In this document: positions 1,302 to 47,933 of the stretch, one piece after another
Layout of the letters: every line of letters begins with the position of its first letter
Position numbering within the stretch: position 1 is the first letter of the stretch
Origin: an uncultured Pseudomonadales bacterium
GTDB lineage: Bacteria; Patescibacteriota; Microgenomatia; UBA1400; PJMF01
DNA length: 64,000 nucleotides
Assembly (NCBI GenBank): GCA_964574595.1
Contig: CAZNOF010000004.1
Coordinates: 17,337 to 81,336, forward strand
Direction of reading: 5' to 3'
The notes under the pieces: model-generated
Databases searched by the model: none
What the model was told of the DNA's origin: nothing
Seen by the model: only the letters and a program-made list of their open reading frames with translations
Translations under genes and position numbers: made by a program

Positions 1302-2252
1302 ATGGCATTAACCACTAACCCCACCCAAGCTTTGATCGCTTTTCTCGAACACTTAGAAGTTGAAAGAAACGTCAGTCAACTCACTATTCGGAACTACGCC
1401 CATTACTTAAACCGCTTCAATGATTGGTTGTCGTCACAAAAAAAGTCGGATTTAAAAGAGCTCGATATGGATACTTTAAGGTCGTATAGACTCTATCTAG
1501 CTCATTTGGAAAATGAACGTGGCGAGACTTTATCGAAAAAAACACAGAGTTACCACGTGATTGCACTCAGGTCGTGGTTTAAGTGGCTCGTCAAAAATGA
1601 TCAACCAGTGCTCAATCCAGAAAAAATTGACTTACCAAAAGCTGAGTCAAAGCAAATGAAGTTTCTCAACTTAGATCAAATTGAGCGATTGCTCAGTCAG
1701 CCCGACTTAGACAAACCAAACGGTTTGCGCGATCGAGCGATTTTAGAAGTCCTCTTCTCCACCGGGTTGCGGGTAAGTGAACTCGTGTCTTTGAATCGGG
1801 ATCAGGTGGATGTACGGCGCCGAGAGTTTGGTGTAGTCGGGAAAGGTCGCCGGCCCCGTGTGGTTTTTTTGAGTGACCGCGCGGCAGACTGGTTACAAAA
1901 ATGGTTGGACTCGCGCGAAGACAATTGGCGGCCAGTCTTCATCCGCTTCTCCCAACATCATCCTGGCTTACTCGCTGATGGCGAGGAAACCCGATTGACC
2001 ACCCGGAGTGTGCAACGTTTTGTGGATGACTATTGCAGGAAAGCCAAGCTTCCAGTTAAGATTACCCCACACGGAATCCGCCACAGTTTTGCGACCGATC
2101 TCCTTTTTAATGGAGCCGGTCTTCGTGATGTTCAAGAAATGCTGGGGCACAAAAATATTGCCACCACGCAAATATACACACACGTTACGCAGCCTCAACT
2201 CAAGAAAGTGTACCAACAGTTCCACTCTGAAAAGTTAGCAGACAAGAAATAA
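1302..2252 (+). CDS. xerC: tyrosine site-specific recombinase, XerC/XerD family
   Basis: Phage-integrase core-binding N-domain. Catalytic C-terminus HGIRHSFATDLLFNGAGLRDVQEMLGHKNIATTQIYTHV carries the R..H..R..Y signature of XerC/D. Confidence 0.85.
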   Translation: MALTTNPTQALIAFLEHLEVERNVSQLTIRNYAHYLNRFNDWLSSQKKSDLKELDMDTLRSYRLYLAHLENERGETLSKKTQSYHVIALRSWFKWLVKNDQPVLNPEKIDLPKAESKQMKFLNLDQIERLLSQPDLDKPNGLRDRAILEVLFSTGLRVSELVSLNRDQVDVRRREFGVVGKGRRPRVVFLSDRAADWLQKWLDSREDNWRPVFIRFSQHHPGLLADGEETRLTTRSVQRFVDDYCRKAKLPVKITPHGIRHSFATDLLFNGAGLRDVQEMLGHKNIATTQIYTHVTQPQLKKVYQQFHSEKLADKK

Positions 2253-2554: not shown

Positions 2555-3334
2555 TTACAACGTTTCGTAACTTAGAGTCACAGTGTAGTTATATTGAGTG
2601 GATCCTGGTTGAATGTTGGTTGGACTGCCGCCACCACTGCCCTGGGCCACGTCTGCCGCTTTGGCCATCATTGGTACTACCATTTGACTTTGTGGAGCCT
2701 CTGTCACGTTAATGACTTTGCCTAACTGAACTCCAGACAGACGAGCTAACTCTTCTGCATTTTGGCGAGCATCTTGAATGGCTTGTTGTCTCGCTTCTTT
2801 TTGAACTTCCTTTTCTTTAGCATCACTCAAGGTAAATTGGATACCACTGATTTGATTCACACCAGCGGCGGTTGCCAGGTCCACCACCTTGTTTAACTTC
2901 TCAAAATCTTTTTCTTGAAGACTAACACTCAAGCTGATATCAACTGAGTAACCAATGATATTTTGGCCTTCCTTTTGATAATCGTAGTTTGGGTAGATGT
3001 TGTAGCTTGAAGTCTTGATGCCATCTTTACTGATACCTAAGTCAGTTAGCTGCTTGGTTAAAGAGTTGATAATGTTGTTGGCATTTGATTGAGCAGCCTT
3101 GATATCAGACTCTTTGCGAGAGATGCCTAAAGTGATTTCTGCTTTATCTGGTTGGGTGCTAATGCTGCTTTTGCCTGAGGCTACGAAGGCTTTGTCCTTT
3201 TGGACGGTTGTTTGACTGATGGAAATAGGAATTGGTGACACGTATTTACTGACGAGCACAATTGCCAGGACAGTCGCAGTGGCAATTAAAGCCGCCTGCA
3301 CAAAAAGGGTGGGAAGTTGTTTGAGGTTTAACAT
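2555..3334 (-). CDS. SIMPL-domain (DUF541, BP26-like) membrane-anchored periplasmic protein
   Basis: N-terminal TM helix. Segment ITLGISRKESDIKAAQSNANNIINSLTKQLTDLGISKDGIKTSSYNIYPNY...GYSVDISLSV is typical of the SIMPL family. AGGAGAA Shine-Dalgarno sits 5 nt upstream. Confidence 0.6.
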   Translation of the reverse strand: MLNLKQLPTLFVQAALIATATVLAIVLVSKYVSPIPISISQTTVQKDKAFVASGKSSISTQPDKAEITLGISRKESDIKAAQSNANNIINSLTKQLTDLGISKDGIKTSSYNIYPNYDYQKEGQNIIGYSVDISLSVSLQEKDFEKLNKVVDLATAAGVNQISGIQFTLSDAKEKEVQKEARQQAIQDARQNAEELARLSGVQLGKVINVTEAPQSQMVVPMMAKAADVAQGSGGGSPTNIQPGSTQYNYTVTLSYETL

Positions 3335-3419
3335 AAGTTCTCCTGTTTCTTAGTGTACTATAACCAATCCAGAAAGTCGTGGTAAAATATCTTTTATCGG
3401 TTTCAAGTAAACCAGAGAT

Positions 3420-3496
3420 GGGCCTGTAGCTCACTTGGCTAGAGCGCTGCTATGGCATAGCAGAGGTAAGGGGTTCGATTCCCCTCAGGTCCACCA
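3420..3496 (+). tRNA. tRNA-Ala (anticodon GGC), with encoded CCA
   Basis: Cloverleaf: acceptor GGGCCTG/CAGGTCC with a G3:U70 pair (the Ala identity element). Anticodon stem CTGCT/AGCAG with loop ATGGCAT. T-arm AGGGG-TTCGATT-CCCCT. 3' ACCA. Confidence 0.9.
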
Positions 3497-3538
3497 AAAT
3501 AGAACCTTCAATCAGATTTTTCCCATTCTTTTGCAGAA

Positions 3539-6523
3539 TTATCTCAGGCTTTTGCCATACTTATGGACTTCTCTAAAGTCCGGTGCTTTCAGGACTTTTT
3601 CCTTGAGGTTCGCGTACTTGTGCTTCAGTGTACCTCTATCAAACTTGGCATTTGCCAGCGTAGCAAAGATATTTAGCCAATCCGCCGGTTCCAAAATTCT
3701 GTCGTGAAGTGAAAGGATCGGATGACGCTCGTGCTTATCTTTCAGTTCAATACCAATTTTCTTAAGATACGCGGCTGCATTCTTCGAGGCCTCTTTTATT
3801 TGCTCAGTAATAAAGGCGTTAACTGCGTCAGGATCTTTCATACTGTGTCGCTCAAGGATATCAACAACTCCCTCGGGATTATTCATAATCAGCGAAGTCG
3901 CTTCAATTAAACTTTGACTATTTTCATCAACGGTTAAGTTATCAAGACTGTCCTCTACCGCTTCTTTATCGTAACCAACTACATCCGTAAGATAGTTGTA
4001 AGCCTGGAGTTTGGCTTTCTTGACGAGTTCCTCAGTGGAGTCATAGGTTAATTCGAGGTACGCGGCTTCCTCGTTAAGGAGGTCAGCTATCTTCTTTCGC
4101 TCCGTTACCTCACTAATATTGAGACGATCCGCATCCGCCACAATCAGCCGTTTCATAGCAACTTGAATCAGGCTTTTCTTTATTTCGGCAATTTTCCGAT
4201 TTTGAAAGTCAGTGGTTTCTTCATCAATTCGTTTAAACTTATCAAAATGTTCTGGGATTGCGCGTACAGCAAAGTTCTGAGGTTTATCCCACGCGCTTGG
4301 TTTCATGAACTCAACAGCCTGGGTGATGGCAGCCGTTTGTTCTGCCAGCCTCTTCTCCATCTCACCTACCACAGCATGAACTGCTGAAGTTCCTTTTGAT
4401 TCAAAGATAGTAGTTGTCAGTTTTAAGCGTGCTCTAGTGCTTTCAGTTTGAGCATTTGGATTTAACCGAGCATCGGTTTCTACATAGTTAAAGTCTTCTT
4501 CCAAGTCGTCCATCGAGTGATCTGCTAGATTCAAATGACTAACCGCTTCTGAAACCTCAGCTTGAAGCTGTGAAGTGGTATTGGAGACTAACTTGTCAAA
4601 GCGCTCCTTCCCTAAGACTGTGGCTAGGTTGTATGTCTCTGAAAATTGTTTCTGAACATAAAAAGGAATTGCTTTTACTAATGTTTGAGCTAGTACATCC
4701 GGCAAATCCTGACGGTCCATTTCAGCTATCTCTTGCCAATCACGTATCTGTTCAGTTTTGAATTTGGCAAAAACTTCTTGCGCTTTCTCAAGCAGGGTGA
4801 TTTCGGCCGAACTTTTTGGGGAAAATCGATTCCAGGTGGGCTCCATGTTGGGGTTGAACGAAGCAATCTGTGATGGCCTTAATCGATCAAACTGTTTTTT
4901 GCCATTTGTTTGAAACTCAGCCACCGCAGCTCTCAGTACCGCATACATATTTTTAATTGGTGTTTCTCGGTTCCCACTCTCAGTGTTGCTGAGAAGGATT
5001 GCTAAAAAGGAGTCAACTTTATACACTCTCTCAAGCTTTGATATGACTTCAGCTACTTTTTTAGAGATTTCTTTTTGAGGTATTTGTTCTCTTAAAAAAT
5101 CTTTTTCATTAAACAATTTGGTGGTCAGGTGTCCTAAGATGTCATTGTCGGTGACACCCACAGCTTTTAATTGCTCGGCAATTTTAAAGGTAGTGAAGTC
5201 CGTATTTAGTTGATCAACGGTACCTACATCATTCATTCTATCGACCATTATTTTGATAATCGTTCGATATTCTCTTGCTTGCTCAATAACCTTTGGGTTA
5301 GAAGTTGGTATGTTGATAATGTTGTCTAATGTCTGGATCAATTCGGATACATCTCTCTTTTGCAGAACGAGATTCTTCAATTTTTTAATCTCCTGAGCTG
5401 TTTGCTCAACGGCCTTTTTGGCAAGTTCCTGAGCTAATGTTCGGACCGCTTCGCGCACCTTAATGTCTGGAATTGCCTGTATTTTTTGAGTGGCATCTTT
5501 CTGATTAAGTATGTCTGCTTCAATCTCCATGACTTGATCAGCTAGCGCATCTTTGAAGTTATCTCTTAAGAAGTTAAACAAATCACTGAGATTGCGATCG
5601 TGGTGATTCATCAGTTTTTGAAGTTCATTGTTAAAATCTTGACGTATTCTGGCGATATCAAGGTTTGCTTTTGCCTGAGCTTTCGGAAGCAGGTTCTTTG
5701 TGGCCTGACGGATGATTGGGTTTTCGATGGCCGCGATCTGCTCCTGAATGAGTTCGGCGGTGGTGTCTTCTTCCCTGAGTCTGATAAGTAAGTTCGTGAG
5801 AATGTTCAAGTCATTGATCAATCCGTATTCACGATACTTTTGTTCCATCATTCGAATCACATTATCAAGATCATCTGTCTCGTTAGAAATATTTTGAAAG
5901 AAATATTCTTTTTGTTTTTCAATTCTTGCTTCTCCGGTGGGCAAACGTTTCAAGATAGCCTGTGAGACCTCAAGAACATCAGGATGTTGAAACGCCAGAG
6001 AGTGCTCAGAGATGTTCTTGCCATTGGCAAAGTCGGTTTGCAGTAGCTCAGCTTGGTGCCAGTCCGAAATGTATTGAGGGAATTTTTTTTGAAGTTGATA
6101 TAGCGCAGTAACAAGTGGTTGGAAGTCTACTACGCTGGAGTCTTTCCGCAACCTCCGTACTTTATCAATCTGGTTAAATTCAGCAAGTTTTTCACCTAAA
6201 ATTCGAGCTAGATTGTTTATGGCAGTATATAGTTGACCGCCCTCAGGTGTATTGATTAACAAGCTGAGTGGTTCAAGATCAGTGATGGCCGCAATCGCTG
6301 CCTTCTTAACCATTTCAGCGGGTGTACTGTCAGGTAGGCCAAGCATCTGCGTAAGTGACAATCGCTCATCCCCAACACTGCGGAATTTCTTAAGGAGCTC
6401 TACTCCCAGCGAAAGTTGACCAGATCTTGTCTCACGACGCGTGTCTTTTACGGGAGCTTCGGCACCATCGGCTTGAGGCTTATTGGCAGCCGCATCAGTT
6501 TTTCTAATATTCGATTCATTCAT
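3539..6523 (-). CDS. large (994 aa) hydrophilic, predicted coiled-coil-rich hypothetical protein; no signal peptide
   Basis: Uninterrupted 2985-nt ORF, E/K/L/Q-rich, no recognisable catalytic motifs. The start region is homologous to the start of the 8169..10097 gene (see findings). Confidence 0.5.
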   Translation of the reverse strand: MNESNIRKTDAAANKPQADGAEAPVKDTRRETRSGQLSLGVELLKKFRSVGDERLSLTQMLGLPDSTPAEMVKKAAIAAITDLEPLSLLINTPEGGQLYTAINNLARILGEKLAEFNQIDKVRRLRKDSSVVDFQPLVTALYQLQKKFPQYISDWHQAELLQTDFANGKNISEHSLAFQHPDVLEVSQAILKRLPTGEARIEKQKEYFFQNISNETDDLDNVIRMMEQKYREYGLINDLNILTNLLIRLREEDTTAELIQEQIAAIENPIIRQATKNLLPKAQAKANLDIARIRQDFNNELQKLMNHHDRNLSDLFNFLRDNFKDALADQVMEIEADILNQKDATQKIQAIPDIKVREAVRTLAQELAKKAVEQTAQEIKKLKNLVLQKRDVSELIQTLDNIINIPTSNPKVIEQAREYRTIIKIMVDRMNDVGTVDQLNTDFTTFKIAEQLKAVGVTDNDILGHLTTKLFNEKDFLREQIPQKEISKKVAEVISKLERVYKVDSFLAILLSNTESGNRETPIKNMYAVLRAAVAEFQTNGKKQFDRLRPSQIASFNPNMEPTWNRFSPKSSAEITLLEKAQEVFAKFKTEQIRDWQEIAEMDRQDLPDVLAQTLVKAIPFYVQKQFSETYNLATVLGKERFDKLVSNTTSQLQAEVSEAVSHLNLADHSMDDLEEDFNYVETDARLNPNAQTESTRARLKLTTTIFESKGTSAVHAVVGEMEKRLAEQTAAITQAVEFMKPSAWDKPQNFAVRAIPEHFDKFKRIDEETTDFQNRKIAEIKKSLIQVAMKRLIVADADRLNISEVTERKKIADLLNEEAAYLELTYDSTEELVKKAKLQAYNYLTDVVGYDKEAVEDSLDNLTVDENSQSLIEATSLIMNNPEGVVDILERHSMKDPDAVNAFITEQIKEASKNAAAYLKKIGIELKDKHERHPILSLHDRILEPADWLNIFATLANAKFDRGTLKHKYANLKEKVLKAPDFREVHKYGKSLR

Positions 6524-6563
6524 GATGAACTAAACTATATAACAAACCAAATTGGTTTGTCAT
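6516..6563 (-). other. 16-codon uORF (MTNQFGLLYSLVHHE) overlapping the start of the 994-aa gene, or a frame-shifted N-terminus; contains a perfect 9-bp-arm palindrome (6542..6560)
   Basis: Minus-strand ATGACAAACCAATTTGGTTTGTTATATAGTTTAGTTCATCATGAATGA. Its stop TGA overlaps the main ATG in the +1 frame. It is about 85% nt-identical to the first codons of the 642-aa gene (MAKQIGLLYSYER). Confidence 0.4.
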
Positions 6564-6604
6564 CTCTAAGAGTAGATGAGACCAGCTGGAATTGGTTGTG
6601 TTTT

Positions 6605-8146
6605 CTAGCGAATATCTTTCATTGACTGTTGTTTGAGGTGTTGGAATACTTGCTGATACAGTTTTGGTTCGATTTTGCGGCCTTTTCTCAAGACTTTTTC
6701 AGTCTCTCCCCGGCTGACGTCACCGGCGACTCGGAACTCAGCCTCAGAAGTTGTATGTAGCCGGAGGATTCTTCGGACAGTCTTGGCTCGGATGCCATCA
6801 TCGGTGATAGTAGTTTTTAATTCGTTATTCAGAGAGTTAGCTAACGAAGATACCACTGCAGTAGCTTCACTTGCGCTAATATCTCCACCGTCGTTCAGCC
6901 ATTTGAAATCGTTTTGATAAAGATAAAAATCACAGCCATCTGCCTCTACTCCACCCACATTCCGCGTGCCAACGATCAATAGATTATCTGGCCAGCCGCT
7001 CTGACTCTCGATATCTTTTCGGGCCCAATAAAAGTTATCATCTTTGTTCCCACCGGCACAGATAAATGTTTTTTCGGGAAATTGATTAGCGAGAGCCGCT
7101 AATTTTTTCAAGTTCTCAGCTGCCAATGCCTCGTTGTACGCCTCAATTCTTTCAGTCAAAAAGGAAGGTTCTTCATTGCTTAAGTCGCGAACAGTTTCAA
7201 TTCCCGCTGATGAGCCGGTCTTTTTATACTCGGCAATAGAGGCTTGGTGATACTCTGCATTTCTTTTGTTGTATTCATCTTCTGTCAGAATCTCTAATTC
7301 ATTTCCGTCTTTATCTACAGGCGTGTTCCCTTTAAAGTACTTTGGTTCATCTTCAGACTGAAGGATATAAAATGCGTCGTTTGGTTTTTCTTCTACAAAC
7401 TGAACTGACTTTGGCAAGTCTTTTGGGTATCGATAGATATATTTTTCTTGAGATTCGCCGACAATGAGACTCATATTAATTATTGGAACTTCGGTAGGCA
7501 GTTTGCGGATTGCCTCAGCAATCACATTTGTATCGATGACTGTTTTGGCTGTGATATTGCCAAGGTCATCGTACTCAAAAGAAGTGCTAATGGCGGGTTC
7601 GAGCGGAGTGATGTGCGGTGTTTCAACCGCAAAGCCATTTTGTTCGGCTGTTTGCACAAATGAGCCAGTGGTTAAGTCGCCGTGTCCTTTTTCAGTTGTC
7701 AACATTTTGTTGAGGATGGCGGTTTTAACTTCAGCTGGATCACTGCTCATGAAATAGGCTGAGTGATTCTCTGCGTACGCTTGAGATGTTACATCCATTT
7801 TGTCTGACCGATCCTCACTACCTAAGAGTTGATGAGTCATGCTTTTCACATCTTTATAAGTGAAGTCGATAAACTCCGTTTGAACTGACTGGGGTGCTTT
7901 TTCTTTATTCTTTTGGAGATCGATGCCTTCTGCGAAATCAGCTAGACCATTAGCGATGTCATTACTGACGAGTGGCAGAACCATACCAGCTTTAGCTACG
8001 TTCCCTACAAAGTCACGACGACTGGCATTGGCCGGTTTATCGTCAGCCGGATTAAAATACTGACGAATTCGGTCACGAACAGACAACCGTTTCTGTGATG
8101 GTTGTGATTCAGGCTGTGGAGTTGGCACTTCAGACATCGTAGACAC
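6605..8146 (-). CDS. hypothetical protein (513 aa), probably co-transcribed with the upstream 642-aa gene (22-nt gap)
   Basis: Long ORF with no signal peptide. Pro/Ser/Gln-rich N-terminus. No confident motif. Confidence 0.5.
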   Translation of the reverse strand: MSTMSEVPTPQPESQPSQKRLSVRDRIRQYFNPADDKPANASRRDFVGNVAKAGMVLPLVSNDIANGLADFAEGIDLQKNKEKAPQSVQTEFIDFTYKDVKSMTHQLLGSEDRSDKMDVTSQAYAENHSAYFMSSDPAEVKTAILNKMLTTEKGHGDLTTGSFVQTAEQNGFAVETPHITPLEPAISTSFEYDDLGNITAKTVIDTNVIAEAIRKLPTEVPIINMSLIVGESQEKYIYRYPKDLPKSVQFVEEKPNDAFYILQSEDEPKYFKGNTPVDKDGNELEILTEDEYNKRNAEYHQASIAEYKKTGSSAGIETVRDLSNEEPSFLTERIEAYNEALAAENLKKLAALANQFPEKTFICAGGNKDDNFYWARKDIESQSGWPDNLLIVGTRNVGGVEADGCDFYLYQNDFKWLNDGGDISASEATAVVSSLANSLNNELKTTITDDGIRAKTVRRILRLHTTSEAEFRVAGDVSRGETEKVLRKGRKIEPKLYQQVFQHLKQQSMKDIR

Positions 8147-8168
8147 ATTCCTTAGAACTGTAGGTAGC

Positions 8169-10097
8169 TTACTTTACATTGCTAAACACTTCACCGAGTG
8201 TGTTAAATAAATCCATGATATCTTCAGATCGAGAGATGGTACTGAAGTCGTCACTGGTGAATTCAAGCGCTCCTTCAACGAATGGGTTGACTCGGTTTAA
8301 ACGAGTATCTCTCGATATAAAGTTCTGAATTCGCTCCATATCTGTGCCTGGATATGTATCAGTTGGTAGCTGATTTACGGCGGCTTCAATCTGTGGGGTG
8401 AGTTCCTGGGCTTTTTGAAAAACGATTGATGGATTTGCTTTTTCACCTAAAGCTCTATGTATATATGGTTTGGCAACATCAGTGAGTTTGAGGATTAAAT
8501 CTCTTTTCAGATCTGCTCTCATCTGGTCAAGCTCTTTCACCCAATCCTTCAGCTCACTATCCTTATAATTCTGATACATCTTTTCAGCGATCTCTCTTAA
8601 TGCTGGTGTTATGATTTTATTTAAGACTGCCTCATCCATTCGAAATTTAAACTCGCCGTGTCGCTCTGGTGGTAAGGCAAAGAAGGCAGATTTCTGTTCT
8701 GTTACATTCTTCTTAAGAAGTTCCAAGTTATCATGCGCTTGTTTTAACGTGGGCACCTGATCTTTATTCTCTGCCAAAATGCTTAGGCACTCATCTAATG
8801 TGGTCGCCTCAGCAGCTCGTTTGGTGATCGCAGCTTCAATAGTTAACTTGGCTTCTGGACTCAACTCATTCCAAATTTTATCAGCTCTTTTAGCTGCCAA
8901 CTGAACGATCCTGTCAAGAATTTCTGGCTCTTTGATTGATGTACCAATCCATTCACGAATTCCATTTTCATCTAAAGGTGTCATATTTCTGTTTTTTCGT
9001 GCCTCAACCATTCCCTCAAATCGATCTAAAGTAATCATGTAATCATAAGCGAGCTGGGACATGGTTATTTCCGCCTCATTCGTCGCAGAGTATGGTTTAC
9101 TAAACTCTTGGAAAACTTTCCTTGCGTCATCGAAGTTTCTGACTCCCCCACCCAAGATAGTTCTGATCATGGAATCTTTTAACTGATCCAAGCTGGCTTC
9201 TGTTCGGCCAGTGTTTGTCTGATCATCAGAGAAATCGACCTTAAACTGTCTTGGAGCATCAATTGAAGTCTCCATCTGATCAAATGGCACACTTTCCGGA
9301 TTCACTGTATCTGGTCTGGTTGCGTCAACTTCAAAATGAGTCATATCAGATTCGGCGTCAGGATCAGTGTCCATCTCACCCACTGGTTCTGGCCTGGCGG
9401 AATCTTCACCGTCTTGAGGCTCTTTCCCCGGAGTTGTATCCATCTCACCGATGGGTTCTGGTCTGGCGACCTTGTATTTTCCATCTCCAATTTCGTCTGT
9501 ACGGAGTCCCTTATTGATAACTCTTTTTCTGATAATTTTTTGGGAAACCTCAGCCGCATAGCCTGCCAGGTTATCAACCATGATATTCATGATCGTGTCG
9601 GACTGCAGATAGTTTTCCAGAGCATCGTGAATATACTCACGAATACCCTGTTGTTCAGGGTTGAATTCAAGGAGAGCTTCGAGTTGTCCTGCAGTACCGG
9701 TTAATACTGACAAATATTGAGTTGCGGCTTGCTTTAAATATTGCTCTTCTTCTTTGTCTGAATCAGCCATGTTGGCGAGAGTGCTCAAATAATCGACGAG
9801 ATCTTTATAACTCCCTGCGGAAGCCATCGTTTTTTCGAGAGCCTTTGAGTAAACGTCGTTCACTGACATCTCTTTTCCAAGATCTCTTCCCTTGTCATCT
9901 TTTCTCTCGTACTTGGCAAAGTCGTCTCTAAGTGTCGTTTGTCTTCTATCCAAGCCAGCCATCTGCTTGGCAATGGTAGCATCTCTTATGGCTTCAGCTT
10001 CTTCATGGGTGTCAACTTCTTGTACTGGTTGGATAGGGCTGTGCTTGGCTTCATTCATACGTTCATAACTATATAACAAACCAATTTGCTTTGCCAT
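8169..10097 (-). CDS. hypothetical acidic protein (642 aa) with an internal tandem repeat ARPEP[IV]GEMDT[TD]P
   Basis: Long ORF with a conserved N-terminus MAKQIGLLYSYERMNEAKH. Repeat units are encoded around 9350..9480. Confidence 0.5.
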   Translation of the reverse strand: MAKQIGLLYSYERMNEAKHSPIQPVQEVDTHEEAEAIRDATIAKQMAGLDRRQTTLRDDFAKYERKDDKGRDLGKEMSVNDVYSKALEKTMASAGSYKDLVDYLSTLANMADSDKEEEQYLKQAATQYLSVLTGTAGQLEALLEFNPEQQGIREYIHDALENYLQSDTIMNIMVDNLAGYAAEVSQKIIRKRVINKGLRTDEIGDGKYKVARPEPIGEMDTTPGKEPQDGEDSARPEPVGEMDTDPDAESDMTHFEVDATRPDTVNPESVPFDQMETSIDAPRQFKVDFSDDQTNTGRTEASLDQLKDSMIRTILGGGVRNFDDARKVFQEFSKPYSATNEAEITMSQLAYDYMITLDRFEGMVEARKNRNMTPLDENGIREWIGTSIKEPEILDRIVQLAAKRADKIWNELSPEAKLTIEAAITKRAAEATTLDECLSILAENKDQVPTLKQAHDNLELLKKNVTEQKSAFFALPPERHGEFKFRMDEAVLNKIITPALREIAEKMYQNYKDSELKDWVKELDQMRADLKRDLILKLTDVAKPYIHRALGEKANPSIVFQKAQELTPQIEAAVNQLPTDTYPGTDMERIQNFISRDTRLNRVNPFVEGALEFTSDDFSTISRSEDIMDLFNTLGEVFSNVK

Positions 10098-10113
10098 CTG
10101 CTAGACTATACAT

Positions 10114-12498
10114 ATGTTGCAAAAAGCTCCGGAAATTACAGGTTTATCTTCAGCCCAAGTTCAGACTCAAATAAATGAAGGTCATCAGGTCAAATTACCA
10201 CTTCGCTCCAACCGAACGTATTGGAACATTATTCAAACCAACGTCTTTAACGTCTACAACGTGATCTTAATTGTTTCATCGTTGTTGGTCTTGTTGCTCA
10301 AAGGCAGCAAGGATGTCCTGGTAGCATTGACGCTGGTGTTAGCCAATATTGGCATTGGTCTTTTTCAAGAAATTCGAGCGAAGAGAACGTTGGATAAGTT
10401 GGCTACGCTGCAAACGCACGTGGTTCATGTTCGCCGGAATGGTCAAACAATGGAGATCCCACTGGCCACATTAGTCCAGGGCGATATCATTGAACTTTTT
10501 CCTGGCGAGCCAATTGTGGCTGACGGCAAGCTCCTCTACTCCGATAGTTTAGAGTTAGATGAATCTTCTCTAACAGGTGAATCAGAATCGGTGCCCAAGA
10601 AAGAACACGAGGAAGTCACTTCCGGAGCCTACTGTTTGGCTGGTTTTGGATTAATGAAAGCTGAAAAAGTGGGTGAGAAAAGTAGTCTCTACGAGTTAAC
10701 TGAAAAAGCCAAAAGTTTCCGTACCTCTCAAACCAGTTCTGAAAAATGGTTGAAGAAATTATTTCAATTTTTGCTCTATACGATTTTGATCTTAGCACCA
10801 CTTACATTAATTAGTGGGATAAATCAAGGTTTTTCTATACCACAAACCCTAACAAACGTCGTGAATTTAGTCAGCAGTTTAATCCCGCAAGGCATGATTG
10901 TGAGTATGACAATTTTATTTGCTTACGGGGTTGTGAATATTAGTAAACAAAATACGCTCATTCAGCGAGTCAACGTGATTGCGATTATGGGGACGATAAC
11001 TTTGTTGTGTGCTGACAAAACCGGCACGCTGACAACCAACCAACTGTCACTAGAAAAAATTATTCCTCTCAACGATCATCCCCTCTCTAAAATCAAAGCC
11101 GATCTCGTCCACTTCACCCAGCATGTTTCTTGGGCCAATAAAACCATGCAAGCCATCGCTACATTCTTGACCACTGAACCACATAAAGACACACCTCAAT
11201 TGATGAAAACTGCGGAAATTCCATTTACTTCCGAACGCAAATGGGGTGGCATGAGTTTTGAGGGCTTGTCATTAGTCTTGGGTGCGCCTGATATTTTGAC
11301 GACAGATGAAAAAATATTAGACCAGGTCACTGAGCTGGCCAAAAAAGGTTTCCGTGTCTTGGCTTTAGCTGAGTCAGAGCTTCCTCTTCAAAACAAAGAA
11401 GTCTTACCGAAACAATTGAAAGTCGTAGCATTGCTTACTTTCCAAGACCATCTTCGAACCGATGTAAAAGAGACAATTGCCGCCCTGGCCAAACAACATA
11501 TTCAACTTAAAATTATTTCTGGTGACAGTGCGGAAACGATTCGCAGTATTGCCGCTCAACTGCATTTGCCAATCTCATATTTATACCAGCAGTCAGACTT
11601 AGTTGATGTAGATCCAGACGAATTTTCTCGGAAAGTGAAGAATGGTCAATTCTTTGCCCGCATTACGCCTTCAATGAAGGAACGTATCATTGCGGAGCTC
11701 GTAGCTCAAGGTGAGTTAGTGGCCATGGTTGGTGATGGTGTCAATGATGTGCGGGCTCTGAAGAAATCTCACGTGGCGATTGCCGTCAATGAGTCATCCC
11801 AAATTACCAAAGATGTGGCAGATATTATTTTATTGGATAACTCTTTTGCTTCATTACCAAAGGCGATTGAAGAAGGTCGTGACATCACCCAGCGCGTTTA
11901 CGCAGTGGCTAAAATCTTTTTTGTGAAAGTGATTTATTTAATTACCCTGTTCTTATTAGCCGGCTTTGCCAGCTTTGCCTTCCCAATTTCTTTGCGTCAA
12001 ACGACTTGGCTCGGCTTCATTGTGGTTGGTGTACCTACCGCGTTGATCACCTTTAAAATTTTGCGACCAAGTGCCACCAAAAACATTCAAAAAGGCCTGG
12101 TACAGTACACGTTAACTGCCGGCATTATTGGTGGATTATTTATGGCGCTGATCATGATTGCCACACAGCTGATCTTCCAAAACGACATTGAAACGAGTCG
12201 CACGCAGGTGAGTTTATTTGCCTCTGTTTTTAGTAGCTTTATTTTGTTCCAAGTCCACGGTATCAACATTTTCTCATTCCCATCGGTGAAGAAAAATTGG
12301 CCATCATTTTTGATTATTGCTGCCATCGGCGCGATTGCGATTTTGTTCCCAAGTGAGTTAACACCTCGTGCATTTCAGTCAGCCCACTTAGACAGTTTAG
12401 ATTGGCTTATTTTGGCCTTTGGAATTGCCGGAAGCATAATGTTACTCCGCTTCATTCTGAAACGCGTAGCACGGTTCGTCGAGGCAAATGAATGGTAA
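10114..12498 (+). CDS. cation-transporting P-type ATPase
   Basis: DKTGTLT phosphorylation motif (CADKTGTLTTN). Hinge motif VGDGVNDVRALKKSHVAIAV. TM bundles before and after the cytoplasmic domain. Confidence 0.85.
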   Translation: MLQKAPEITGLSSAQVQTQINEGHQVKLPLRSNRTYWNIIQTNVFNVYNVILIVSSLLVLLLKGSKDVLVALTLVLANIGIGLFQEIRAKRTLDKLATLQTHVVHVRRNGQTMEIPLATLVQGDIIELFPGEPIVADGKLLYSDSLELDESSLTGESESVPKKEHEEVTSGAYCLAGFGLMKAEKVGEKSSLYELTEKAKSFRTSQTSSEKWLKKLFQFLLYTILILAPLTLISGINQGFSIPQTLTNVVNLVSSLIPQGMIVSMTILFAYGVVNISKQNTLIQRVNVIAIMGTITLLCADKTGTLTTNQLSLEKIIPLNDHPLSKIKADLVHFTQHVSWANKTMQAIATFLTTEPHKDTPQLMKTAEIPFTSERKWGGMSFEGLSLVLGAPDILTTDEKILDQVTELAKKGFRVLALAESELPLQNKEVLPKQLKVVALLTFQDHLRTDVKETIAALAKQHIQLKIISGDSAETIRSIAAQLHLPISYLYQQSDLVDVDPDEFSRKVKNGQFFARITPSMKERIIAELVAQGELVAMVGDGVNDVRALKKSHVAIAVNESSQITKDVADIILLDNSFASLPKAIEEGRDITQRVYAVAKIFFVKVIYLITLFLLAGFASFAFPISLRQTTWLGFIVVGVPTALITFKILRPSATKNIQKGLVQYTLTAGIIGGLFMALIMIATQLIFQNDIETSRTQVSLFASVFSSFILFQVHGINIFSFPSVKKNWPSFLIIAAIGAIAILFPSELTPRAFQSAHLDSLDWLILAFGIAGSIMLLRFILKRVARFVEANEW

Positions 12499-19427: not shown

Positions 19428-20120
19428 TCAAACGGCTTTAAACTGAAACAATAAATTCTCAAGAACTAGCCGAGTATTCACGTTTTTATTGAGGTAATCA
19501 ATTGAAACGAGTGTCTGCTGGAGCAGTTTCACATTTTTGCCGCTGGGTGTACGCATATTAACGCTGTGGAGTTCAACAAGCAACTCTTTCAAAAAGTCAT
19601 TGGCTTCTGTTTTTTCTTTATATTTGCCAGCCATTTCCATCAAATCTGTATATGAAGCCGAGCTAAATGTATCAAGATGAGCTGTGGCAGTTTTGCTAGC
19701 GCCTTTGTCAAGTTCAATGGCTGAGCACCTCGATAAAATGGTGGGTAGAACGCGCTGAATATTCGATGTAGTTAGGATGAATTGAACGTGAGCCGGCGGT
19801 TCTTCCAATGATTTTAAGAGGGCATTTTGAGCTGGAACAGATGCCAGTTCAATCTTACAAATGACGAAAATAGCCTGTTTGGCCTCCCCCATTCCTTCGT
19901 ACGGCCGCATCACCATTTCTCCACCCATGTCTCTGACCTGCTCAATAGACATCGCCCCAAATTCTTCAGGAACAGTATCTGGATTTAACCAGTGCAGATC
20001 TGGATTTTTCAATAGATCATGCTCAGAAAGATTGTATTTTTTTGCCAAAAACGCCGTCACCTGACTCACATGAGAGGCAGAATCATTACATTGCAGAAGA
20101 AGCGAGATATTCGATGGCAT
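19428..20120 (-). CDS. holB: DNA polymerase III delta-prime subunit-like, short form lacking a P-loop
   Basis: NALLKSLEEPP...FILTT...LPTILSRC matches the sensor-1 and SRC motifs of clamp-loader delta'. No Walker A. Confidence 0.6.
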   Translation of the reverse strand: MPSNISLLLQCNDSASHVSQVTAFLAKKYNLSEHDLLKNPDLHWLNPDTVPEEFGAMSIEQVRDMGGEMVMRPYEGMGEAKQAIFVICKIELASVPAQNALLKSLEEPPAHVQFILTTSNIQRVLPTILSRCSAIELDKGASKTATAHLDTFSSASYTDLMEMAGKYKEKTEANDFLKELLVELHSVNMRTPSGKNVKLLQQTLVSIDYLNKNVNTRLVLENLLFQFKAV

Positions 20121-20173
20121 TGGATAGTCAAAGTATACAGTAGGAGAAAGACGAGAGGAGGTATAATTAGTGG

Positions 20174-20623
20174 ATGAAACTGAATCAGATTCTTAACAAA
20201 AGGTATGAAAGTGTGATTCTGGATAGGGTTTTGGATTTTATAAAGAATCTTCTCGAAAACTTCATAATTTACGCATTGCTGACTTTTGCAATTAAATTAT
20301 TTTTAATCATTAATTTCTTGAGTTCCATATTTACCATAAGCTACTTTTCAGTTGCTTTTTATCTTGGAGATTTTATAGAGAATTTTTATTACTTAACACT
20401 TTTTACTTTATTTTTAATTCCAATAGTGGATGTCCCACTGTTCTCGTTGGTCTATCTTCATAACAGTAAAAAAGAAAGAACCGTTAAAAATTGGTTACTG
20501 GCTTTTATTGCTGGTTTAATTGGGGGTGTATTGGTAATTTTTCTTACTATTGTAGTTTTATACCTTTTGGTTCAACTTTTATTGTCGGGATATTTGAAAA
20601 CATCTTACCAATTAACTAAGTAA
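20174..20623 (+). CDS. small integral membrane protein, paralog 1 of 3
   Basis: 3-4 predicted TM helices. Conserved block YLTLFTLFLIPIVDVPLFSLVYLHNSKK....LLAFIAGLIGGVLVIF is shared with the next two ORFs. Confidence 0.5.
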   Translation: MKLNQILNKRYESVILDRVLDFIKNLLENFIIYALLTFAIKLFLIINFLSSIFTISYFSVAFYLGDFIENFYYLTLFTLFLIPIVDVPLFSLVYLHNSKKERTVKNWLLAFIAGLIGGVLVIFLTIVVLYLLVQLLLSGYLKTSYQLTK

Positions 20624-20658
20624 GAACAGGATATGCATCTGCTATATCATTTTTTAAA

Positions 20659-21027
20659 GTGTTGTCCGAATATCTAAAGAGAGGTTTCTTTATTTTTCTG
20701 ATCTGCAGAATCTTATTAATTATAATAGTCGCGGGTCTGTTCGGATCAAACGTTTTTGATAATGTTCATTTATTTGGTGATTTCCTACTGGATATTTATT
20801 ATTTGGTTCTTTTTTCCTTAGTTCTAGTTCCATTGTTAGATGTTCCATTTTTTAGCTATCTGTTTTTTAAAACCAGTAAGCCAAATCGATTAGGGCATGT
20901 TCTACTGGCAGTTATGCAGGGAGTTTTAGCTGGATTATTGGTTGTAGTCATAACAATAGTTATTAATCTTGTTACGAGTTATATTATTAGTCCGACTTTT
21001 TTTCCACATACCTTTACGGGATCTTAA
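20659..21027 (+). CDS. small integral membrane protein, paralog 2 of 3
   Basis: YLVLFSLVLVPLLDVPFFSYLFFKTSKPNRLGHVLLAVMQGVLAGLLVVV is homologous to paralog 1. A hairpin terminator lies at about 21035..21060. Confidence 0.5.
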   Translation: MLSEYLKRGFFIFLICRILLIIIVAGLFGSNVFDNVHLFGDFLLDIYYLVLFSLVLVPLLDVPFFSYLFFKTSKPNRLGHVLLAVMQGVLAGLLVVVITIVINLVTSYIISPTFFPHTFTGS

Positions 21028-21054
21028 AAAAATAGGGCGCTCTTTTAAAGAACG

Positions 21055-21140
21055 CCCTTTAACTTCGATCACGTTGAATACTGAGTTTTGCTCCATCTGA
21101 AAAGACAAGCTTGCACTAGCACTTGGGCCTGACCGAGTTG
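21055..21140 (-). pseudogene. decayed roughly 80-nt fragment of the SH3b-repeat gene
   Basis: About 85% nt identity to 22318..22400 and 22638..22720 inside the 21632..23551 CDS. A 2-nt deletion and an in-frame TAG are present relative to the intact copies. Confidence 0.45.
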
Positions 21141-21164
21141 TTAATCGTTTTATGAATAAGAACC

Positions 21165-21548
21165 GTGCTAAAATTAGTTATGAACATAAGCAAAAAAATT
21201 GAGTCAAGTAAGTTTAAATATTCTATTTACGGCGCTTTGGCCACATATCTAGCAATCATTTTTAAAATAGTGATTTTCTTACTAGTAGGTGGAATATTTA
21301 ATCTAACTGTACTAATTAAGCCCTTTTATATGGCACTGACTTTTGCTGCTTATTTCTATTGGTGGATTTCACTTCCTGCTGTATTTTCTACTGTTTTTAC
21401 AGTAATTAAGGAAAAAAAATCTAAACTTTTATTTAAAAACATTATTTTTAATGCATTTTTTGCTGTTCTCTTTACGCTTCTTGCGGGGACAATCTTATTC
21501 GTTATAGGAATGATTCCAGTGCTTCTAGTCCCAGGATTTAGTCCGTAA
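21165..21548 (+). CDS. small integral membrane protein, paralog 3 of 3
   Basis: Four hydrophobic helices with the same organisation as paralogs 1 and 2. Confidence 0.45.
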   Translation: MLKLVMNISKKIESSKFKYSIYGALATYLAIIFKIVIFLLVGGIFNLTVLIKPFYMALTFAAYFYWWISLPAVFSTVFTVIKEKKSKLLFKNIIFNAFFAVLFTLLAGTILFVIGMIPVLLVPGFSP

Positions 21549-21555
21549 TTTATAT

Positions 21556-21584
21556 AGGAGGCGTTTGATAATCAAACGCCTCCT
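21556..21584. terminator. bidirectional intrinsic terminator between convergent genes
   Basis: Perfect 13-bp stem AGGAGGCGTTTGA-taa-TCAAACGCCTCCT. Confidence 0.6.
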
Positions 21585-21631
21585 AATGAGGTAAACCTCC
21601 TTAAAAAGAAAGACGAATGCTGACGTTACCG

Positions 21632-23551
21632 TTAATATAGCCCTTGAGTTCGTGCAACATCATCCAGATTAGATATACTCAAGCTGAGTTTGCTTAAAGC
21701 TAACCCAACATTTCTCTGTGCAATATCATCTGGATTATCTGTGAATCTCCAACCCTCATGGGCTTGCAAAGATGCAAGTGTTTGATCCGTGTTGGCAATT
21801 CCATTTTGCCAGTAAATGTTGATTCCAAGATCAGTCATAAAATAGCCATAGGCTATATTGCCTACCCCAGAAAGATCCATAACCTTGGTTCCAACTGAGT
21901 AACGTATTCTGGATTTGCAGCTGTCAAACCCATGAATGCTTTGTTTACAGACTGCGTTGACTACTATGTCCTTGTTTTTATTGGAATCTCCTCCTATAGG
22001 GACAGCATAGAAGTAAAAAATCGTTCGCTGCACATCCATGTTCTGCCCGCTCAGTTTATTCTTCAATTTCTGAAGTTCATTGACCGTAAATTCATCTCCG
22101 TTAACGATTAATTCGTTTGCGGAGTCGTAAACAAAATTGAACCATGATCCATCAACTACCTGAACACTAATGATTAGGTTCTGACTTGAAGCTGACTGAC
22201 TCTGTCCCTCCCCTGCATATGCAACCCAGTTTTGGGCAGCGTTACCTTCTGCTGTCCAGCCGATTTGACCATTGTAGCTGATCTGCCACCAGCGGAATCC
22301 TTCTGCGCACTGAGGGCCACCGATCACGGTGAATACCGAGTTTTGCTCCATTTGGAAAGATAAGCTTGCACTAGCACTTGGACTGGATCGAACGTTGTTC
22401 TTTGGTCCGGGTAAAACTTTGCCAAGATTGCCGACGGCAAATGGTGCACGTGTATTACAGGCTGCTTCTGTGCTTTGGCCAGCATTACTGTTACTTGGAC
22501 CTTGTGGTTGAGAAGAACCTGATGAGCCTGAACCACGAGATACAGTTTGTATCCAGTTTGTTGAGCCATCACCTTCAGCCGTCCAACCAATTGTTCCCTT
22601 GAAGTTCACTTGCCACCAACGTAGGCCATCACTGCAAGCTGGTCCTCCGATCACGGTGAACTGACTGCCTTGTGACATCTTCGTCAGATAGATAGAACCT
22701 TTACTTGGGCCTGACCGAATGTTGTTCGGGTCTCCCGGAAGCACTACCGCTGTGTCACCAACTGAAACCAAACCACCACCACAAGATGGATCTGCATTGG
22801 AGTTGTTATTACTTCCGCTGTTTCCGCCATTGTTTTGGTTTTGATTGTTCTGATTGTTGTTCCCACTATTCGAGTTGTTGTTATTGTTATTTGAACTCCC
22901 CGAATTGGAATTGGTGTTTTCTGGCGCAACATATGTTGGTTGGGCGTTGCACGTCCAAGAATTGCGGTCACCGGCATTGTTAAGGCCGGGATATGGTAGT
23001 GCGCCACCGTATTGCCATGCACAAACTTCTTCGACTGTAAAACGGACTTCTTGATCTCCGCCTGCACAAAATAAGTCGTGTGCGTTCGCCGGATTGCCGC
23101 CAACCCGATCTAGATTTTTGCTGTTTTTACAAAAACCAGTGAAATCAGCTCCTCCTGTTTGAGGAGACTGACCCGGTGATGAGTTGCCTGATGAAATAAC
23201 GTTCACACTTTGGCATCGTTCTTCAGACTGAGCCTGCTGTTCACTCTGGCCATCGCGTTGAGCTACAGAGCAAATCGTTAAGGTGCCGAGTCCCCATTCA
23301 TTCGTCTTGATGGTGGAAGTGTGTTCCGGTCCACCAAAGTCGTTGAAATGCGGATCACTGCGCTGAGTGCCACGAATATCGAGCCAAGTTCTTGCTTGAA
23401 AGTCTGCTTTGACATACACATTGAGTATCGTGTCATCAGTGACGGTTCCGTTTGGACTGATATCAAATCGATACTCCGCCAGAACCAAACTTGCTGGTGC
23501 CAAAAGCACCGCTAACAGAAACAAGATACCGAGTCTACCAATCTTAGACAT
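21632..23551 (-). CDS. secreted modular protein: signal peptide, unknown N-domain, Asn-rich linker, two SH3b (SH3_3)-like domains, unknown C-terminal domain of about 200 aa
   Basis: Signal peptide MSKIGRLGILFLLAVLLAPASLVLA. Two copies of G..V.P.....RS.PS.....L.......FTVIGGP.C..G.RWWQ....G.IGWTAEG. Poly-Asn linker. An internal roughly 250-nt DNA repeat. Confidence 0.6.
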   Translation of the reverse strand: MSKIGRLGILFLLAVLLAPASLVLAEYRFDISPNGTVTDDTILNVYVKADFQARTWLDIRGTQRSDPHFNDFGGPEHTSTIKTNEWGLGTLTICSVAQRDGQSEQQAQSEERCQSVNVISSGNSSPGQSPQTGGADFTGFCKNSKNLDRVGGNPANAHDLFCAGGDQEVRFTVEEVCAWQYGGALPYPGLNNAGDRNSWTCNAQPTYVAPENTNSNSGSSNNNNNNSNSGNNNQNNQNQNNGGNSGSNNNSNADPSCGGGLVSVGDTAVVLPGDPNNIRSGPSKGSIYLTKMSQGSQFTVIGGPACSDGLRWWQVNFKGTIGWTAEGDGSTNWIQTVSRGSGSSGSSQPQGPSNSNAGQSTEAACNTRAPFAVGNLGKVLPGPKNNVRSSPSASASLSFQMEQNSVFTVIGGPQCAEGFRWWQISYNGQIGWTAEGNAAQNWVAYAGEGQSQSASSQNLIISVQVVDGSWFNFVYDSANELIVNGDEFTVNELQKLKNKLSGQNMDVQRTIFYFYAVPIGGDSNKNKDIVVNAVCKQSIHGFDSCKSRIRYSVGTKVMDLSGVGNIAYGYFMTDLGINIYWQNGIANTDQTLASLQAHEGWRFTDNPDDIAQRNVGLALSKLSLSISNLDDVARTQGLY

Positions 23552-25954: not shown

Positions 25955-25959
25955 ACATT

Positions 25960-27033
25960 ATGCCCAATACCCTCATGGCCGTGCCAGAGATGCTGCAATT
26001 ACTGATCGATCGCAAAGGATCAGATCTTCATTTAGTAGCTGGTTATCCGCCTGCTATTCGTGTCGATGGTCAATTGTTTGCGATTGACGGACAACCTCGT
26101 TTGACTCGTGAGTTGGTTGAACAACTCGTCATCACCTTCATGACTCAAGAGCAGCGTGACTATGTGACAGTGAACCGTGAGTTGGACTTTAGTTACCAGT
26201 TCAAAGATCTTGCCCGCTTCCGTGTAAATGCCTACTTCCAACAAGGCGTGTTGTCCGCCGCTCTGCGGTTAATTCCGACGCAAATTAAAACGATTGATGA
26301 GCTGATGCTGCCACCAATTTTTCATGAATTCACTAAGTACAAACAAGGTTTAGTTCTGTTAACTGGTCCAACTGGTGAAGGTAAGTCCACCACGCTAGCT
26401 GCCATCATTCAAGAAATTAATCAAAATCGATCTGACCATATTGTGACTATTGAAGATCCAATTGAGTTTGTACATATTCCTGAGCGAAGTATTATTTCTC
26501 AGCGAGAAGTGCACCAAGATACGAATAGCTGGGAAATTGCTTTACGCTCTGCTCTCCGAGAAGACCCGGATGTGGTGCTAGTAGGAGAAATGCGTGACTT
26601 TGAGACAATTTCTGCCGCAATTACTGTTGCTGAAACTGGCCACTTAGTCTTTGCCACGCTTCACACTAACTCTGCTTCACAGACGATTGACCGTATCATT
26701 GACGTCTTCCCGGAGCATCAACAATCTCAAATTCGTCAACAGTTGTCATTAACCCTTCAAGCAGTTGTCTCACAGCGGTTAGTGCCAAAAGTGTCTGATG
26801 GTCGTGTGGCCGCGACGGAAATCATGATTGCTACTTCTGCCGTCCGGAACTTAATTCGTGAGCAAAAAACCTTTCAATTAGATAACGTAATTCAAACTTC
26901 TAGTGAGCAAGGCATGTCGCTGATGGAAAACAGTTTAATTCAGTGGGCAACTCGCGGTACCATCACTTTCGAAACTGCCAGAATGTATTCTATTCGACCA
27001 GAAGAATTTGATCGATTAAGTGGCAAAGGGTAA
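25960..27033 (+). CDS. pilT: twitching-motility retraction ATPase PilT
   Basis: GPTGEGKSTTLAA, EDPIEF, LVGEMRDFETISAAITVAETGHLVFATLHTNSA. Confidence 0.9.
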   Translation: MPNTLMAVPEMLQLLIDRKGSDLHLVAGYPPAIRVDGQLFAIDGQPRLTRELVEQLVITFMTQEQRDYVTVNRELDFSYQFKDLARFRVNAYFQQGVLSAALRLIPTQIKTIDELMLPPIFHEFTKYKQGLVLLTGPTGEGKSTTLAAIIQEINQNRSDHIVTIEDPIEFVHIPERSIISQREVHQDTNSWEIALRSALREDPDVVLVGEMRDFETISAAITVAETGHLVFATLHTNSASQTIDRIIDVFPEHQQSQIRQQLSLTLQAVVSQRLVPKVSDGRVAATEIMIATSAVRNLIREQKTFQLDNVIQTSSEQGMSLMENSLIQWATRGTITFETARMYSIRPEEFDRLSGKG

Positions 27034-27042
27034 TTCATTTAT

Positions 27043-28245: not shown

Positions 28246-28254
28246 ATTCTAGCC

Positions 28255-29070: not shown

Positions 29071-29079
29071 GATGAATAC

Positions 29080-29985: not shown

Positions 29986-30036
29986 TTCAGGTTTGGAATG
30001 TAGACAGCACTCTGATTTTTCGCTAAGCTTATTACC

Positions 30037-30474: not shown

Positions 30475-30570
30475 AAACTGACTACTGGACAACCTATTAA
30501 CAACTATTCTATTATTAAATATACGAAAGAAAAAACTGCCCAATTAACGCAGAAAAAAGGAGAAAGACAT

Positions 30571-31029: not shown

Positions 31030-31109
31030 TTAGTTAGAATTAATAACAGAAAGAGGGGGAGGAAACTCCCCCTTTTTTGTACCTTTCGAAGTGTTGTATA
31101 ACTGTATAC

Positions 31110-31499: not shown

Positions 31500-31508
31500 A
31501 TAAGCCTT

Positions 31509-31991: not shown

Positions 31992-31996
31992 GAATT

Positions 31997-35884: not shown

Positions 35885-35915
35885 ACATTCAGCCAAAAGT
35901 GAGAAAAGGATAAGA

Positions 35916-35945
35916 GTTATTAAATAAATGAAGTTATTTAATAAC
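35916..35945. terminator. AT-rich 12-bp-stem hairpin between convergent pilus operons
   Basis: GTTATTAAATAA-atgaag-TTATTTAATAAC. It overlaps the stop of the minus-strand pseudopilin gene. Confidence 0.45.
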
Positions 35946-45254: not shown

Positions 45255-45303
45255 GCTATCTGCCCCTATTTACTCCACACCTCGCCTTTGCTAAGCTTAT
45301 CTC

Positions 45304-47910: not shown

Positions 47911-47933
47911 TGGAGTTAAAGGAAGGCCTGCCT

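Follow-up and report, generated by a model that had tools for sequence, protein, structure and literature searches.

We analyzed a 64,000-nucleotide (nt) stretch (the window) of contig CAZNOF010000004.1, from an uncultured bacterium that GTDB places in the Patescibacteriota. Here we consider a cluster of three long open reading frames (ORFs) on its minus strand, which we call gene A (642 amino acids, aa), gene B (513 aa), and gene C (994 aa). Our favored reading, which we hold with modest confidence, is that these genes are a lineage-specific accessory set in two units that share a duplicated promoter, that A and C are paralogs, and that B is an exported, divergent subtilase. The most apt description of the cluster is a rapidly evolving accessory set, native and specific to this lineage, and not a conserved three-protein machine. 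Stop-free frames of 500-1000 codons at 42% GC do not arise by chance, so the three ORFs are genes.

The division into two units came from the 5' ends of A and C. No direct repeat in the window's first 14 kb scores higher than family D1 (42 nt, 83% identity), which has one copy within the 5' portion of the 642-aa ORF and the other upstream of gene C. The common element reads AGATG[A/G]CAAA[C/G]CAA[T/A]TTGGTTTGTTATATAGTT, then 7 or 8 nt, then ATGAATGAA; the window has its 20-mer core at just these two sites, against a chance expectation of 0.00 matches. The layout resembles that of a sigma-70-type promoter (a -35-like hexamer, an 18-nt spacer, and TATAGT), and the spacer is occupied by an 8-1-8 palindrome, CAAACCAA-N-TTGGTTTG. 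In a promoter scan of positions 3300-10600, the copy at C was the best site, with 10 of 12 matches, and the copy at A had 9 of 12. Each TATAGT is followed, after 9 nt at A and 10 nt at C, by ATG AAT GAA. The similarity between the two 5' regions (alignment A3) ends directly after these codons and, on the other side, just upstream of the -35-like hexamer. The element has kept 83% identity while the A and C proteins drifted to about 25%, so it seems to be under selection: a noncoding 42-nt element that outlasts the drift of the proteins points to a real regulatory site. Since both units carry the same element, the genes look co-regulated. The preliminary description had proposed a single co-transcribed set; joint expression is indeed probable, but from two units, A-B and C.

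The same comparison bears on where gene A begins. Because its 5' region is homologous to the promoter of gene C and includes the ATG AAT GAA start, A probably starts at the ATG at 10058 (MNEAKHS..., 629 aa), and the ATG at 10097, which had been taken as the start of a 642-aa protein, falls on the -35-like hexamer. The 642-aa ORF does lie 16 nt from a divergent P-type ATPase ORF, and this spacing had led to the view that the promoter of A must lie inside neighboring coding sequence. With the start at 10058, the gap becomes 55 nt and holds the predicted promoter, which resolves the puzzle. No Shine-Dalgarno motif precedes the start of A or of C, or either of the ATGs within the element, and starts that lie 9-10 nt after TATAGT imply a leaderless or near-leaderless transcript. 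We found no helix-turn-helix regulator among the small window ORFs that were scanned, and no copies of the palindrome in any of the loci that were fetched.

Several side observations concern this type of promoter. The palindrome of copy 1 is 21 nt upstream of the start of the divergent P-type ATPase gene (10114), where the promoter of that gene must be, so one palindrome-bound protein could control both A and the ATPase gene. Of the 43 window ORFs of at least 150 aa, only about a third carry a Shine-Dalgarno-like motif in the 18 nt ahead of the start; in many, TANNNT is found 6-16 nt upstream instead. A homolog of B in another genome (locus L003) has the arrangement TATAAT-6 nt-ATG. Together, these patterns suggest that leaderless or very short-leader mRNAs are frequent both in this genome and among its relatives. 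A further duplicated promoter-like cassette, C[C/G]CTATTTACTC...CCTTTGCTAAGCTTATC[TC/CT]-ATG with TAAGCT 6 nt ahead of the start codon, lies at 45264-45303 and 47055-47094, upstream of the plus-strand ORFs 45304-46242 and 47095-47910. These ORFs have N-terminal hydrophobic segments and lie close to genes for pilus assembly. This genome may make a habit of reusing short-leader promoters.

The A and C proteins of the two units are also related. An all-against-all comparison of the window's ORFs singled out A and C (BLASTP, E = 5e-6), which are about 25% identical. Searches for other relatives found very little. In a word-indexed search of 5.8 billion proteins, A had no hit other than itself, and the same was true for C. 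For C, we also ran an exhaustive phmmer search against 1.84 billion cluster representatives, which stand for about 15 billion predicted proteins; it found C itself and one remote homolog, P0006 (E = 7.7e-21, 26% identity), with a match that spans residues 574-895 of C. BLASTP between P0006 and C (E = 8e-27) adds a second block, which aligns the extreme C termini (EPADWLNIF... and TPIDWLNIL...). When A, C, and P0006 were aligned, they had the motifs W...R-x-[DE]-L, P[FY], and D-x-R-[LW]-N...P in common. A and C are distant paralogs in a tiny, all-helical, acidic family, and P0006 is the only further member found in public data. That is, just one relative of the family was detected outside this genome, and for gene C alone.

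Other searches covered all three proteins. At the curated cutoffs, neither Pfam nor NCBIfam had any match to A, B, or C; PHROGs and PADLOC had no significant match, with E values of at least 0.03 for the best PHROGs. Sequence searches of the PDB with A, B, C, A1, A4, and P0004 (a homolog of B) gave no matches. No relatives appeared in scans of metagenome contigs for the B and C families or in four scans of viral contigs, and tblastn with all three proteins found no matches in the phage and plasmid collections. The preliminary description saw no recognizable family in any of the three and called them orphans. For the 642- and 994-aa proteins, the label is nearly right, and they seem to be near-orphans; B, as discussed below, belongs to the subtilase superfamily.

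The product of gene C had also been described as rich in E, K, Q, and L, which it is to a modest degree, and as having the look of a coiled coil, which is not supported. We used a crude in-house heptad test whose score is the fraction of residues that are inside heptad-like windows. Tropomyosin, the positive control, scored 1.00, whereas C and A each scored 0.08, GyrA scored 0.05, and a 676-aa control ORF of the window (55706-57736) scored 0.11. A single-sequence model of C has about 41 helices of 4-38 residues each, with many breaks. We therefore rejected the idea that C forms a long coiled coil, as its heptad fraction is in the range of the controls and its longest predicted helix has 38 residues. 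Cytoskeletal proteins of the crescentin and FilP/Scy types are likewise large, hydrophilic, and rich in helices and lack signal peptides; C differs from them in its heptad coverage (8%) and in its short and broken predicted helices. A cytoskeletal role was premised on a long coiled coil, and this premise failed the heptad test.

Gene B had been described as a protein without recognizable domains, but its motifs, its predicted structure, and a profile match of a homolog point to a divergent subtilase. The word-indexed search of 5.8 billion proteins found two homologs, P0003 (51% identity) and P0004 (31% identity), and three members of the family are known. In the alignment of these three proteins, the invariant motifs run in the order found in subtilisin: IDFT (IDSG in subtilisin BPN'), GHG (HGTH), INMSL (INMSLG), CAGGN (AAAGN), LLxVG (IAVGA), and S-[ED]-ATAxVS (TSMASPHVA). 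The subtilisin motifs were taken from typed-in sequences, of which the Carlsberg one was also checked in the PDB. The candidate catalytic residues D94, H155, N367, and S426 (513-aa numbering) are invariant in all three members and stand in subtilase order. Of these, only Ser was placed by alignment (BLASTP of P0004 against subtilisin Carlsberg, and hhalign), and Asp, His, and Asn were placed by the resemblance of the motifs. The BLASTP alignment (E = 0.009) puts Ser221 of Carlsberg on the family's invariant Ser. Around the Ser motif, P0004 also matches Pfam's Peptidase_S8 (PF00082) with 18.3 bits (E = 0.0015), as compared to a cutoff of 21.8 bits. The AlphaFold model of B has a subtilisin-like alpha/beta fold, and about 170-195 residues of S8/S53 structures can be superposed on it. 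Given the model and the motifs, B very probably has a subtilase fold (clan SB), and it is somewhat more likely than not to be catalytically competent.

Thus, B resembles the subtilases (MEROPS clan SB, family S8, PF00082) in its fold superposition, in the order of its motifs, and in the placement of its Ser on Ser221, but it is too divergent to be detected by Pfam or NCBIfam. Its NMS motif is separated from the oxyanion Asn by about 140 residues, versus about 30 in subtilisin BPN'. It differs from classical subtilases in having an invariant Cys pair (C363 and C405) and a 40-residue hydrophilic stretch ahead of its twin-arginine motif. No I9-type propeptide was detected, as none of the B-family members matches Pfam's I9, and the signal region and the first candidate catalytic motif are no more than about 30 residues apart. 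The fetched loci yielded no S8 sequences.

The signal region suggests that B leaves the cytoplasm by way of twin-arginine translocation (Tat), although the preliminary description had it as a cytoplasmic protein. R43, R44, and F46 are invariant in the three family members, which read SRRDFVG, ERRAFLK, and SRRTFLS, and in each of them the RRxF is followed by 12-18 mostly uncharged, mildly hydrophobic residues (in B, the Kyte-Doolittle maximum is 1.03, at aa 46-64). This is what is expected of a Tat-type signal ([ST]-R-R-x-F-L-K type followed by a mildly hydrophobic h-region). P0003 also has a weak match to TIGR02811 ('formate_TAT') at aa 36-58 (E = 0.066). Subtilases that are exported by Tat do exist: the haloarchaeal halolysins SptA and Nep have a twin-arginine-type signal, as B does (PMC6085418). 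We lean toward export of B by Tat.

Table 1 lists the features of the locus. The basic layout in the preliminary description held up: the three long minus-strand ORFs are present and hydrophilic, 22 nt separate the 642- and 513-aa ORFs, both a tRNA gene and a xerC-family gene lie beside the trio, and no segment of A, B, or C is hydrophobic enough to be a transmembrane helix (the top 19-residue Kyte-Doolittle averages are 1.17, 1.03, and 0.69). The acidic tandem repeat that had been noticed in the 642-aa product was also recovered, as two copies of a 33-nt unit with a period of 69 nt (23 aa). The 513-aa frame of B is present as well, but its start moved to the ATG at 8137 (510 aa), which is the start of the deposited NCBI protein and agrees with the alignment to the closest homolog. 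The A protein is acidic, has a single cysteine, and has no Pfam domain; the C protein is free of cysteine and also has no Pfam domain. To the left of tRNA-Ala and the trio are a SIMPL/DUF541 gene and the XerC-type recombinase; beyond gene A are the divergent P-type ATPase gene, a histidine kinase, a response regulator, and gyrA. Among the genome contigs, the best relative of the P-type ATPase was 38% identical, and no synteny was found.

TABLE 1 Features of the gene A-B-C locus, with positions in the window
Feature	Positions	Strand	Details	Source
Gene A	8169-10097; 8169-10058	minus	642 aa as the longest ORF; 629 aa from the proposed start	ORF list
Gene B	6605-8146; 6605-8137	minus	513 aa from GTG; 510 aa from ATG 8137	ORF list
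Gene C	3539-6523	minus	994 aa	ORF list
Promoter/operator copy 1 (predicted)	10059-10097	minus	within the 642-aa ORF, at its 5' end; -35-like ATGGCA 10097-10092; palindrome with 1 mismatch 10093-10077; -10 TATAGT 10073-10068; ATG 10058	promoter scan, palindrome search, repeats
Promoter/operator copy 2 (predicted)	6524-6563	minus	ahead of gene C; -35-like ATGACA 6563-6558; palindrome without mismatch CAAACCAA-T-TTGGTTTG 6559-6543; -10 TATAGT 6539-6534; ATG 6523	promoter scan, palindrome search, repeats
Region of A homologous to aa 503-688 of C	8295-8798	minus	aa 421-588 of the 629-aa form	
Conserved C-terminal part of C, common to P0006	3542-4804	minus	aa 574-994	phmmer, BLASTP, alignment A4
Twin-arginine-like signal region of B	7961-8026	minus	aa 41-62, ASRRDFVGNVAKAGMVLPLVSN	three-member alignment
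Acidic tandem repeat in A	9367-9468	minus	ARPEP[I/V]GEMDT[T/D]P...	repeat family D4, translation
tRNA-Ala(GGC)	3420-3496		42 nt from the end of gene C	
XerC-type integrase	1302-2252		usual XerC/D domain pair	

The preliminary description had suggested a survey of the trio's synteny. The homologs of B and C lie in other neighborhoods. In one genome (L001/L002), the homolog of B is between small hypothetical genes and an IS1595 transposase, and in another (L003/L004), it has an aldo-keto reductase gene on one side and a PAP2 gene on the other; tblastn found no A- or C-like neighbors in either genome. P0006 (in L085, which is cut by a contig end) has no A- or B-like neighbors. The preliminary description had allowed that the proteins might turn out to belong to known families with no conserved linkage: the linkage is not conserved, and B falls in the subtilase superfamily, but A and C matched no known family. 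As a side observation, the IS1595-family transposase gene (L001, 11615-12508) overlaps the 3' flank of the closest homolog of B, P0003, and the B family may have been moved or disrupted locally in that genome.

The neighbors of P0006 offer a lead, from a single contig. P0006 is followed by an 83-aa ORF on the opposite strand, a 587-aa vWA protein, and a MoxR-like ATPase of the AAA_5 family. At L085 2846-6142, the 587-aa protein combines HEIDH (a metallopeptidase-like HExxH) with a vWA domain that has a MIDAS-like motif, DRSGSM; the ATPase has at least 509 aa and a long helical N terminus. These neighbors form a MoxR/vWA-type pair, and with P0006 just upstream, they recall the vWA-MoxR ternary systems: a vWA protein paired with a MoxR-like ATPase is used in conflict systems (Kaur et al. 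2020, PMC7159879). The VMAP proteins of these systems are defined by an alpha+beta VMAP-C domain, and their middle regions are fast diverging and all helical (PMC7159879). The N-terminal halves of A and C likewise appear to be fast diverging and all helical. However, C and P0006 are predicted to be all helical, in contrast to the alpha+beta VMAP-C, and neither of them matches VMAP in Pfam. The adjacency was observed once, with a gene on the opposite strand intervening, and no vWA or AAA_5 genes were found among the scanned window ORFs or beside the trio. Given the lack of a VMAP match and the all-helical prediction, and with vWA and AAA_5 genes beside P0006 alone, we rejected C and P0006 as VMAP components.

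We considered three other explanations for the cluster. In one, the 5' element would be a short leader ORF encoding M[T/A][N/K]Q[F/I]GLLYS, fused in frame to A and forming a 15-codon upstream ORF that overlaps the start of C, with a role in translational control or targeting; the preliminary description had read it as a shared N-terminal tag. Both copies do start with ATG and contain no stop for at least 10 codons, and at A the element shares the reading frame of the long ORF. However, the copy upstream of C is in another frame and is stopped by a codon that overlaps the true start, all three differences within the first 10 codons are nonsynonymous, and the two copies share an identical run of 18 nt, third positions included; these features imply a constraint on the DNA and not on a peptide. 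The element also fits the spacing of -35 and -10 hexamers and contains a palindrome, and neither ATG has a Shine-Dalgarno-like motif ahead of it. The "tag" is better read as a promoter/operator repeat in the DNA, and a translated leader seems improbable. Alternatively, as the preliminary description suggested, A, B, and C might be one module for host interaction, a set of effectors, or a cytoskeletal system. The subtilase would then process or mature the two large helical proteins, in the way that mycosin acts together with ESX substrates. The 22 nt between A and B and the promoter/operator in common make joint expression probable, and A and C are alike in being acidic, almost free of cysteine, and without known domains. 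Yet the homologs of B stand alone among unrelated genes in two other genomes, the homolog of C has no A- or B-like neighbor, no secretion ATPase or WXG-type gene is beside the trio, and gene C fails the heptad test. Moreover, B appears to be exported and A and C have no export signal, which would place the enzyme and its substrates in different compartments. Nor does the comparison to mycosin (MycP) and the ESX/type VII systems go far: the EccC-type ATPase, EccB/D/E, and WXG100 genes are not among the trio's neighbors, B has no C-terminal membrane anchor, and the linkage of the trio is not conserved. We view a single module as unlikely.

It is less likely still that the trio was carried in by a mobile element or island that the nearby tyrosine recombinase inserted at tRNA-Ala, perhaps as a defense or conflict system. 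The proximity of tRNA-Ala to the end of gene C, with an integrase-family gene 1.2 kb further on, fits with such an insertion, as do the IS1595 transposase beside the B homolog in L001 and the vWA and AAA_5 (MoxR-like) neighbors of the C homolog, a pairing known from conflict systems (PMC7159879). However, the window does not contain a second copy of the 3' end of the tRNA, even with up to 3 mismatches allowed, and the integrase, which has the domain pair usual for XerC/D, is on the far side of the tRNA and the SIMPL gene. The GC content, the GC content at third codon positions (GC3), and the codon usage of A, B, and C are all in the middle of the distribution for the window. PADLOC, PHROGs, and the phage, plasmid, and viral-contig searches gave nothing significant, and the scanned window ORFs include no vWA or AAA_5 gene. 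We rejected an island inserted at the tRNA, given the lack of a repeat of the tRNA 3' end, the integrase outside the trio, and the native composition. We also rejected a phage or plasmid gene set, for which the phage, plasmid, and viral-contig collections hold no relatives and PHROGs gave only E values of at least 0.03. The native composition, the lack of a tRNA repeat, and the lack of phage or plasmid relatives point to a native origin, and the trio looks native to this genome and old in this lineage.

We return to a lineage-specific accessory set in two units as the explanation that we favor. Unit 1 would consist of gene A (629 aa from 10058) and, 22-31 nt later, gene B (510 aa); unit 2 would be gene C (994 aa). 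Both would open with the duplicated cassette of a -35-like hexamer, the 8-1-8 palindrome, TATAGT, and, 9-10 nt on, ATG AAT GAA. A single dimeric DNA-binding protein, presumably a repressor, might bind the palindrome and switch both units together. Gene B's product would leave the cytoplasm by Tat and act outside as a serine protease. A and C, which have no export signal, may stay in the cytoplasm or leave by another route, and they could be scaffold or partner proteins.

Several points weigh against this account. All of the regulatory elements (promoter, transcription start, and repressor) are predicted, and the leader ORF set out above is another way to read the element. The linkage of A, B, and C is not conserved elsewhere. 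The 22-nt spacing of A and B makes a direct functional tie of B to A or C possible, but conservation does not support it. For gene A, the search for relatives used the word-indexed method alone. As for B, its candidate Asp and His were assigned solely from motifs, PF00082 does not match the window's own B and matches P0004 below the gathering score, and the Tat-signal models of Pfam and NCBIfam match neither B nor P0004. The AlphaFold model of B has low confidence (pLDDT of 44), and Foldseek with this model found nothing significant in the PDB (the best subtilase was at rank 25, with E = 0.68). hhalign aligned the Ser region alone (E = 0.15, probability 0.4%). Searches of the B family with a hidden Markov model (HMM) built from 4 S8 sequences, and of subtilisins with an HMM of the B family, scored no higher than shuffled controls.

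The rest of the window has a few features of its own. A large set of type IV pilus genes lies at 23738-36495 and 47095-50341; its members include a PilB-like ATPase that carries an MshEN domain, another ATPase of the T2SSE family, and several ORFs whose N-terminal hydrophobic segments look like those of pilins (by appearance; these were not scanned with Pfam). The set also includes a 1295-aa LamG/DUF2341 protein whose N terminus is similar to those of the pilin-like ORFs. Together with a class A penicillin-binding protein, the pilus set points to a small-genome, surface-active organism. The lowest GC content in the window is at 20001-22000 (0.341 versus about 0.43), and the ORFs in this stretch (20174-20623, 20659-21027, and 21165-21548) are three small ones without Pfam matches. 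A 263-aa ORF at 385-1176 on the plus strand has no match in Pfam, NCBIfam, PHROGs, or PADLOC; no ORF of the window has a higher GC3 (0.553), and its codon usage is atypical (distance of 0.62).

On present evidence, the cluster opens no long-standing question. A bolder possibility, to which we give little credence, is that A and C found a new and fast-evolving helical family that cooperates with an exported subtilase, or among relatives with a vWA/MoxR pair, under one repressor that binds the palindrome. These genes would then be an undescribed module for the envelope, host interaction, or conflict in an uncultured and poorly sampled lineage. More generally, the locus illustrates that when starts are called from the longest ORF, the call can absorb a promoter and yield a false "N-terminal tag," and that a subtilase can drift past the curated profiles while the comparison of folds still finds the relationship. 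A and C are a clean example of lineage-restricted "dark" proteins, and, given expression or interaction data, they would make a defined pair of targets.

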